Positions 40,085 through 40,370 of a DNA stretch of 43,160 nt are shown here, one piece after another. The notes beneath the pieces were generated by a model. The model had not been told where the DNA came from. It was given only the letters and a program-made list of their open reading frames with translations, and made no database searches. The DNA is from a virus (Duplodnaviria > Heunggongvirae > Uroviricota > Caudoviricetes). Each line of letters starts with the position of its first letter. Position 1 is the stretch's first letter. The DNA lies in IMG/VR virus record IMGVR_UViG_3300014682_000024, positions 1 to 43,160 of that record; one strand, 5' to 3'. The position numbers were made by a program, and so were the translations under genes.

Positions 40085-40370
40085 ACACGCTGCCACATGT
40101 GGTCGTGCGCCGGACACGGATAAGAATCCGGCACTGACAGTTTACTGAAAGGATATATCCCTGAAAAGTCAGGGCATAACGCGAAAGCGCACGGCGAAGT
40201 TCGTCTCACTGTACGGTGTCGTTAAATTTAATTCGACCGTGCGCTTCCGGTTGTGGCACTCCGCGAAATGGCGCGGCGGTAAGTATGGCGGGGTTATTCT
40301 TTCCCCGTTGAGGACACCGGGTTGTCAGGTTGACCATACGCTTAAGTGACAACCCCGCTGCAACAACCCA
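40085..40370. other. ORF-free GC-rich region with at least six consecutive perfect stem-loops; candidate structured RNA or palindromic element
   Basis: Hairpins at 40109-40132, 40159-40174, 40187-40244 (8-bp outer stem), 40261-40276, 40289-40307 and 40319-40355. Confidence 0.3.

Follow-up and report, generated by a model that had tools for sequence, protein, structure and literature searches.

Operon context of the element

The DNA stretch described here comprises positions 40085-40370 of a Caudoviricetes genome record of 43,160 nucleotides (IMG/VR record IMGVR_UViG_3300014682_000024), which at its full length is referred to as the window. Read as RNA of the + strand, this element is the spacer between open reading frames (ORFs) of the ydfABC type and a DicF-like small RNA (sRNA). 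It is an untranslated spacer in an early-left operon of the dicBF type, downstream of a DicA/Cro-type immunity region, and the locus is part of the known system of the dicBF leader or DicF precursor. Its conserved core of about 115 nt (40250-40364, + strand) folds into a four-way junction of the helices P1 to P4 with an extra helix, P2a, and a pseudoknot. Covariation among homologues is the decisive evidence that this structure goes beyond chance.

Pfam hits around the element comprised HTH_3, P22_Cro, YdaT, DUF1391 and DicB. The DicA-like helix-turn-helix repressor (HTH_3) is encoded on the + strand at 38780-39238, and the P22_Cro-like and YdaT-like genes are divergent from the + strand genes. 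The small ORFs of the + strand are ydfA (DUF1391, 39432-39587), a YdfB-like ORF (39589-39717) and an ORF in the ydfC position (39729-39887). Their order from 39432 to 39887 matches ydfABC of Escherichia coli K-12 and of strain EC11. The next gene of the operon is dicB (40610-40798, + strand; Pfam DicB, E = 2.4e-38), which encodes a cell-division inhibitor. The + strand is untranslated from 39888 to 40609, a stretch of about 720 nt. A consensus scan, as the only evidence, revealed the promoter-like site TTGACC-17-TAAATT (39326-39354, + strand) between the repressor gene and ydfA, where K-12 has dicBp between dicA and ydfA. As a candidate counterpart of dicBp/PL, this site would drive the + strand transcript as a whole.

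The initial annotation had described the element as a GC-rich stretch of the early-left operon without ORFs of 60 amino acids or more and with at least six perfect stem-loops, one of them nested. The flanking genes named above agree with this operon assignment. The longest ORFs overlapping the element have 48 and 46 amino acids on the - strand and 36 amino acids on the + strand, and stop codons interrupt all six frames across 40085-40370. All six stem-loops were located by their coordinates, together with additional smaller hairpins. They are formed by perfect stems of 6 bp (40109-14/40127-32), 6 bp (40159-64/40169-74), 10 bp (40185-94/40237-46, with an inner hairpin nested inside), 5 bp (40261-65/40272-76), 5 bp (40289-93/40303-07) and 9 bp (40319-27/40347-55). 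The GC content of 52-54% indeed exceeds the 38-43% of the flanks, but the enrichment is moderate only. The proposed boundaries turned out to be approximate. The structured untranslated RNA extends from about 40104 to the DicF-like terminator at 40428, and beyond 40428 structure continues to a perfect inverted repeat of 19 bp ahead of dicB (40610).

Fold and strand of the conserved core

The helices of the core are P1 (40250-57/40357-64), P2 (40261-65/40272-76), P2a (40278-80/40316-18), P3 (40289-93/40303-07) and P4 (40319-27/40347-55). P4 carries a near-invariant loop of 19 nt (40328-46), which forms the pseudoknot (40283-88/40334-39) with J2/3, the linker between P2 and P3. For the comparative analysis about 250 loci were gathered from IMG/VR and GTDB. 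MAFFT was used to align 111 distinct copies (alignment A1), and 100 copies were re-aligned to a covariance model termed R1 (alignment A2). The search for compensatory base changes, which the initial annotation had proposed as a check, was clearly positive. In A2, 95.9% of the cells are paired and 17 of the 36 core pairs show changes on both sides. Shuffled controls gave 6.7±1.7 such pairs, with none of 500 reaching 17, and partners slid by 1-3 columns gave 2-7. The MAFFT alignment likewise contains changes on both sides in 13 of 33 pairs, compared to 6.3±1.5. Whole helices are exchanged in P4 (GGGUAACCA/UGGUUACCC, GAGCUACCA/UGGUAGCUC and GGAUCACCA/UGGUGAUCC) and in P3 (CCAGGUG/CACCUGG, CUGGG/CCCAG and CGAGG/CCUCG). 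An independent RNAalifold run on A2 recovered P1, P2, P2a, P3 and P4. The minimum free energy (MFE) fold of the isolated RNA of the window (~183 nt) contains P1-P4 and the terminator. Model R1 scored the core of the window with 162.6 bits and the 100 loci with 84-168 bits. The unpaired linker and loop are 94-100% identical, compared to a mean of 92.5% for the helix columns. An all-against-all mutual information analysis of the alignment was dominated by the split between the clade of phages P1 and P7 and the remaining copies; it was uninformative and was dropped.

Folding of single sequences was suggestive of structure. The exact coordinates of the element gave z = -3.09 on the + strand, with 2 of 200 shuffled sequences folding equally well. 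A wider stretch of 341 nt gave z = -1.86 on the + strand and z = -4.29 on the - strand. Thermodynamics alone hints at structure and cannot pick the strand.

The core is a + strand RNA because of the G·U pairs in helix P1, the comparative folding energy and the promoter strand in phages P1 and P7. Two pairs of helix P1 switch between wobble and Watson-Crick pairs (UG in 51, UA in 37 and CG in 9 copies; GU in 59 and GC in 26 copies). The wobble pairs would read as A·C mismatches on the - strand. The alifold energy is -57 on the + strand versus -39 on the - strand. In P1 and P7 the sole promoter lies on the strand of the core.

An ORF of 65 amino acids adjoins the element on the - strand (39859-40056), and the 5' half of the element might serve it as promoter region or 5' untranslated region. 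The ORF possesses a GGAGG ribosome-binding site, its own terminator (39840-39819, - strand) and matches to PHROG 17494 and 27767, both of unknown function. The sequence at its junction is kept in many loci with differing ORFs, and the - strand gave the lower z value of -4.29. This assignment is nevertheless highly unlikely. Neither a scan nor inspection by eye revealed a - strand promoter for the ORF in the element, the 5' module of the element persists in K-12 in the absence of any such ORF, and the comparative fold favours the + strand, which alone fits the G·U pairs of the core. We also noted that the 65-amino-acid ORF is convergent with the ORF of the ydfC position, with which it also overlaps, and that it may possess a hairpin masking its Shine-Dalgarno sequence.

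Insertions and deletions among the copies fall into all three length classes modulo 3 (46, 36 and 18). Together with the stop codons in each frame, these frame-breaking changes argue against coding or decayed coding sequence, and a coding reading was rejected.

The covariance-model scan for known RNA families that the initial annotation had suggested revealed no Rfam family covering 40085-40370. Gathering and permissive scans found no family at its gathering score inside the element. Of the permissive hits listed, only mascRNA (14.4 bits, E = 8.7) fell there, and the phage RNAs of Rfam, among them the C4 antisense RNA of P1/P7, sar and STnc100, gave no match inside 40085-40370. ARAGORN predicted no transfer RNA (tRNA) gene in 39800-40700, and Rfam gave no tRNA hit there.

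The 5' module, the long stem f and the DicF-like sRNA

Upstream of the core, the 5' module (40104-40175, + strand) consists of hairpins b (40109-14/40127-32), c (40138-40/40145-47) and e (40159-64/40169-74). Hairpin e shows one compensatory change from C-G to U-A in 7 copies and is degraded in the K-12-type copies. The module is followed by the long stem f (40176-40254, + strand), which was obtained by both MFE and alifold prediction. It pairs AUAAC (40176-80) with GUUGU (40250-54) and, beyond an internal loop, AAGCGCACGG (40185-94) with CCGUGCGCUU (40237-46), and it encloses a variable insert. An allele of different sequence, ACAACGAUGAGAGCA/UGCUCUCUUCGUUGU, keeps a long stem of 16-18 bp at the same place in Salmonella phage F1055 and in loci L030, L065, L172 and L186.

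Stem f is flanked by a direct repeat of 24 nt with 75% identity (40173-40196 and 40255-40278). In locus L011 (1624-1760) a deletion between these repeats removes stem f and the 5' strand of helix P1. The variable insert of stem f in phage F1055 (locus L138, ~1415-1430) contains a hairpin resembling a tRNA T-arm, CTGGTTCGATTCCAG.

Downstream of the core, the linker and the DicF-like sRNA occupy 40365-40428 on the + strand (sRNA 40371-40428). They end in a terminator hairpin (40389-40416) and a U-run. The Rfam family DicF (RF00039, a 52-nt model) matched 40371-40421 with 34.1 bits and E = 1.7e-05. The divergence of the seed from that of K-12 keeps this hit under the gathering score of 48. The hit lies outside the element, and no RF00039 match at or above the gathering score was obtained within 40085-40370. 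The core is linked to a downstream terminator in 198 of 202 unique homologous contexts, where the U-run lies 35-82 nt after helix P1. The seed between core and terminator varies while the core stays constant. The sRNA seed of the window is AUUACCUUUUGG, compared to UUUCUGGUGACGUUUGG in K-12 DicF, and the seed type of the window recurs in many loci. An sRNA with this seed may have other targets.

Further downstream, the perfect inverted repeat of 19 bp (40431-49/40574-92, + strand) encloses 124 nt and lies just before the ribosome-binding site of dicB. A hit to STnc100 (40419-40642) overlaps it with 34 bits, below the gathering score of 47.

The element is thus a piece of a polycistronic leader and represents the 5' portion of a known sRNA precursor. 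The structured noncoding RNA proposed in the initial annotation was correct as far as its RNA nature is concerned, as indicated by the covarying helices and the G·U pairs of the + strand, but the element is not an independent gene.

Distribution of the element in genomes and phages

A megablast search detected the element in 4317 of 5426 complete E. coli genomes (about 80%), K-12 included. The 8981 matches correspond to a median of 1 copy per genome and a maximum of 8 copies in multi-prophage strains; 29 of 30 were unannotated among the matches listed. Identity to the spacer between ydfC and dicF of the K-12 prophage Qin is 89.8% over 83% of the query, and other E. coli sequences reach up to 97.8%. 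Temperate phages carrying the element include mEp460, Tritos, Evi, cdtI and Stx2a and Stx2c converting phages. Every locus that was opened is a prophage or phage early operon with the element in the same operon position. A scan of genome contigs with the exact loop pattern, which is a poor guide to the true range, found only Escherichia, Shigella and a few metagenome bins. The BLAST matches are mosaic (query positions 45-305, 105-305, 191-309 and 44-196), and some phage records annotate "hypothetical proteins" over the element.

The 3' third of the element matches phages P1 and P7 just past the ban promoter (Pban), in a region annotated as "dicF-like region". There P2, P2a, P3, P4, the pseudoknot and the 19-nt loop are kept with compensatory changes, and a short RNA with an intrinsic terminator follows the core. 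The core begins ~35 nt after the Pban start, and the distance from this start to the "dicF-like" terminator is ~180 nt. The primary transcript of P1 and P7 would be the same unit of core and sRNA as the 190-nt DicF species of K-12 described below. In contrast to the window, the C1-repressed promoter lies only ~35 nt upstream, so that stem f and an RNase III step are not needed. Moreover, the pairing of helix P1 is weak (4 bp), terminator and seed bear no relation to DicF, and the next genes encode tRNAs.

As an alternative to an RNA, the initial annotation had considered a palindromic insertion, and it had named repeats of the repetitive extragenic palindrome (REP) or bacterial interspersed mosaic element (BIME) type as a refuting match. 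An element acting only as DNA, of the REP/BIME type or resembling a miniature inverted-repeat transposable element, or a decayed coding sequence could explain the many hairpins, the mosaic sub-blocks including a hairpin a/b piece found alone in Stx2 phage P13374, and the "hypothetical proteins" of some records. We regard this as extremely improbable. REP/BIME units measure ~35-40 nt and occur in hundreds of intergenic copies per genome, in contrast to the median of one and maximum of 8 copies found here. The loci opened are all prophage or phage early operons with one constant operon position, and the helices are kept by compensatory changes. In addition, insertions and deletions of all modulo 3 classes and stops in every frame speak against a reading frame, and the K-12 homologue is transcribed and processed.

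With regard to the mosaic sub-blocks, locus L270 (Stx2 phage P13374, 2501-2559) contains only the first ~59 nt of the element with 83% identity, comprising hairpins a and b. This block corresponds to 40087-40145 of the window. In L270 it lies in an early-left intergenic gap of O104:H4-type Stx2 phages, which suggests that it is separately mobile.

Processing of the leader RNA and a model of its refolding

Published experiments show that the homologous K-12 region is transcribed and processed, in agreement with the transcript expected by the initial annotation. DicF species of 190 nt and 53 nt were found in K-12, both derived from the dicBp transcript (Ragunathan et al., bioRxiv 10.1101/2023.04.14.536235, confirming Faubladier et al. 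1990). The 190-nt species is lost without RNase III, accumulates upon inactivation of RNase E and is stable in stationary phase, the 53-nt species depends on RNase E, and no internal promoter was found in the K-12 dicBF leader (bioRxiv 10.1101/2023.04.14.536235). A DicF species of 72 nt has also been published, and its 3' end was attributed to RNase III. In the K-12 DicF literature examined, the 137 nt that precede mature DicF are given neither a structure nor a function, and a sequence-string search of the literature for the element found nothing.

The position of the RNase III cut was calculated from these data. K-12 DicF corresponds to 2781-2833 of locus L001, which sets the start of the 190-nt RNA at ~2644-2649, equivalent to 40244-40249 of the window. 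This computed 5' end falls within CCGUGCGCUUCC, which is the 3' arm of stem f, or immediately behind it, and precedes helix P1 by 1-6 nt. Because of this position just before P1, the 190-nt RNA would consist of DicF and the ~115-nt core. Stem f would be the RNase III substrate, with a cut expected near 40244-40249. By the same arithmetic, the published 3' end of the 72-nt DicF falls in the 5' arm of the 19-bp repeat. This repeat is probably a second RNase III site that gives the 72-nt DicF its 3' end in K-12. Thus, two RNase III stems would bracket the unit of core and DicF.

We consider it probable that the leader RNA as a whole works in the following way. RNase III would cut the 3' arm of stem f near 40244-40249 and produce an RNA of about 185 nt, with the ~115-nt core as its 5' domain and the DicF-like sRNA with its terminator as its 3' domain. 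Before the cut, the 5' strand of helix P1 (GUUGUGG) would be held in stem f. After the cut it would pair with the downstream CAAC strand and the core would close. RNase E would then cut the single-stranded linker and free the short sRNA. The core would act as a constant scaffold, that is, as the compact, stable and 5'-monophosphorylated body of a precursor that sets storage and release of DicF-type sRNAs. We favour such a precursor scaffold because the element is tied to an sRNA terminator while the seed varies. It is also in line with the stability reported for the 190-nt species during stationary phase.

The refolding step was examined by structure prediction. The 5' strand of P1 continues the 3' arm of stem f, and the upstream AUAAC or ACAAC competes for it with the downstream CAAC. 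In MFE folds that include the upstream sequence stem f always wins. For 159 unique contexts, the mean pairing probability of P1 was 0.11 with the upstream sequence, with GUUG paired upstream at 0.86, and it rose to 0.74 when the same contexts were cut 5 nt before P1. Locus L195 carries a U-to-C change in the strand common to both pairings, and the downstream partner, unlike the upstream one, shows the compensating change, which suggests that P1 is the pairing under selection.

Several points weigh against this explanation. The 5' part of the element (40104-40254) is near-invariant in 71 E. coli-type copies and hence offers almost no covariation. The loci were mostly fished with patterns of the conserved loops, so that loop invariance is partly an effect of ascertainment; as a partial control, a scan with a linker pattern found these loci again and nine more that carry single loop substitutions. 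The copies are close relatives of one another, with an effective number of 1.74 in the model build. The cut was placed by arithmetic from a published length and not from a mapped nucleotide. The experimental data concern the K-12 locus, and the prophage of the window is known from its sequence alone. The K-12 190-nt RNA folded by itself yields an MFE structure without P1. Nothing that we found requires a 115-nt junction with a pseudoknot merely for sRNA release. Finally, in loci L174 and L195 the core lacks a DicF-like hairpin or a following terminator and lies inside ORF-free RNAs of 0.9-1.5 kb, which argues for a role of the core independent of DicF.

These loci bear on the idea that the core is an autonomous, trans-acting stable RNA which merely shares the DicF transcript, serving for example a host protein or nuclease as decoy or ligand, or mimicking a tRNA, with RNase III and RNase E excising it like rRNA and tRNA. 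Its presence without a DicF-like hairpin in the multi-domain RNAs of L174 and L195, the domains of which are bracketed by long stems, would be explained in this way. A cloverleaf-like layout with a pseudoknot between loop and linker, the position before the tRNA cluster in P1 and P7 and a constant core next to a varying seed would also fit. Such an RNA is improbable, since 98% of the copies are tightly coupled to an sRNA terminator. In addition, no 137-nt species appears in the published K-12 DicF work examined, ARAGORN found no tRNA, and Rfam contributed no family, the only tRNA-like hit being the mascRNA match of 14.4 bits.

A riboswitch-like sensor or attenuator that decides whether the DicF-type terminator forms is very doubtful. 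The complex junction with conserved loops does lie upstream of a terminator, the pairings of stem f and P1 are mutually exclusive, and the MFE structure of K-12 lets GGCGG of J2/3 pair with the 3' arm of the terminator. This last pairing is, however, not conserved in P1 and P7, whose terminator sequence is unrelated, or with other seed types. Competing helices thus exist in the form of stem f and P1, but the terminator is not involved in a conserved way. The linker holds a variable sRNA seed instead of a conserved switching sequence, L174 and L195 have no terminator after the core, and no known aptamer class was matched in the Rfam scans.

Comparison with other phage leaders and processing systems

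The K-12 Qin leader is among the known systems closest to the element. It is ~90% identical over 40104-40364, has the same flanking genes and shows the same order of long stem, core, DicF, long inverted repeat and dicB. Differences concern the sRNA seed, which in the window leaves the sRNA below the Rfam DicF threshold, the insert of stem f, the ORF in the ydfC position and the extra - strand ORF.

Ribosomal RNA operons and the early RNA of phage T7 contain long flanking stems which are cut by RNase III to release a structured domain. Stem f and the 19-bp repeat bracket the unit of core and DicF in a similar way. In contrast to these stalks, the cut is predicted here to switch the partner of one strand from stem f to P1. 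Another similar case is PreS/LPR1 of phage lambda, an Hfq-bound sRNA that ends at terminator tL2a of the early-left operon. Like the DicF-type sRNAs, it is made within this operon at an internal terminator, processed further and expressed in the lytic cycle, but no conserved upstream junction domain was described for it and its sequence is unrelated.

Bacillus EAR is a structured cis-acting antiterminator RNA that is located after a promoter and before terminators, with conserved unpaired positions. The put sites of phage HK022 are likewise structured RNAs just past an early promoter and before terminators, in a phage without an N-type protein, and their unpaired positions are conserved. They bind the zinc-binding domain of the RNA polymerase beta' subunit, and termination is thereby suppressed. 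The core could be a cis-acting transcription element in this manner, the nascent fold of which binds RNA polymerase or blocks Rho and allows passage of the DicF-type terminator to dicB and the recombination genes. In unrelated phages it is found at the head of long early operons, with a strong intrinsic terminator right behind it. Phage cdtI has a PL matching the consensus at 11 of 12 positions and then 590 nt of leader RNA ahead of its first ORF, and P1 and P7 show the order Pban, core, terminator, tRNAs and ban. Neither in the window nor in cdtI is an N-like gene the first one after the promoter. The near-invariant unpaired nucleotides next to varying helices resemble a binding site for a conserved host machine, and the ~720-nt untranslated stretch from 39888 to 40609 would otherwise be open to Rho. 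Against this, put comprises ~70 nt with two stem-loops in two copies per phage and has no sequence or structure match to the core. Model R1 found nothing in the putL and putR regions of HK022 at E values up to 10. The window contains a single core copy and no partner in the right operon. No additional + strand terminators above chance were found downstream in the window, cdtI or P1, so that processive antitermination is not required. Read-through species were undetected on K-12 Northern blots (bioRxiv 10.1101/2023.04.14.536235). In sum, a put- or EAR-like function is unlikely. The 9-mer GCGCGGCGG, which by eye is shared with HK022 put, was not supported by the covariance model and was rejected.

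It is possible, though rather doubtful, that the core represents an undescribed phage RNA family with a function of its own. It would then be a constant handle for a conserved host machine such as RNA polymerase, RNase E/degradosome, Hfq, ProQ or a defence nuclease. In lambdoid prophages, P1 and P7 it would be combined with sRNA seeds and terminators that can be exchanged, and in some elements it would be one domain of 0.9-1.5 kb multi-domain RNAs, each domain of which is enclosed by a stem of the RNase III type. The RNase III cut would be the switch that closes the junction.

Under the leader RNA explanation favoured above, the results extend the picture of DicF, which is one of the longest-known bacterial sRNAs and influences cell division, metabolism and the virulence of enterohaemorrhagic E. 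coli. The 137 nt that travel with DicF in the 190-nt species gain a fold supported by covariation, together with an inferred RNase III cut and a predicted refolding. Active temperate phages and about 80% of the complete E. coli genomes carry the same fold, as do P1 and P7 behind their ban promoter. The junction-plus-pseudoknot fold, the identity with the P1/P7 ban leader and the model of refolding triggered by RNase III appear to be undescribed in Rfam and the literature searched. The core is a ready candidate for a new RNA family. It has become testable whether it controls storage and release of the sRNA or read-through of the terminator into dicB, or has a separate role.

Additional observations at related loci and in the window

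In phage cdtI (locus L268, 4684-5311) a strong PL-like promoter with 11 of 12 consensus matches precedes a leader RNA of ~590 nt, which ends before the first ORF. It contains the 5' module, the core, the DicF-like terminator and a long stem, and no N-type gene occupies this position. Locus L139, from a record named Actinobacillus phage vB_Apl-pPE4, carries a tandem duplication of the unit of linker and DicF-like terminator (1600-1760). Its neighbours DicA, YdaT, Kil and exonuclease VIII resemble the genes of a lambdoid phage of the E. coli type. Divergent second copies of the core in L171 and L172 were rejected, as the hits were weak (13-15 bits) and lacked P4.

The large RNAs of L174 (4680-5545) and L195 (4300-5835) are GC-rich and ORF-free, and each has a terminator; L174 also has a promoter-like site. 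They are composed of several domains, each closed by a long stem of the type ACAACG..AAGAGC / GCUCUU..CGUUGUG. No Rfam family matched the scanned RNA of L174. Positions 5693-5787 of L195 are ~82% identical to unannotated DNA of virulent Dickeya phages of the LIMEstone type and of a Xanthomonas phage.

Elsewhere in the window, the - strand encodes a sok antitoxin RNA of the hok/sok type (33072-33245, 98 bits) and two adjacent tRNA genes (27958-28029 and 28036-28108).

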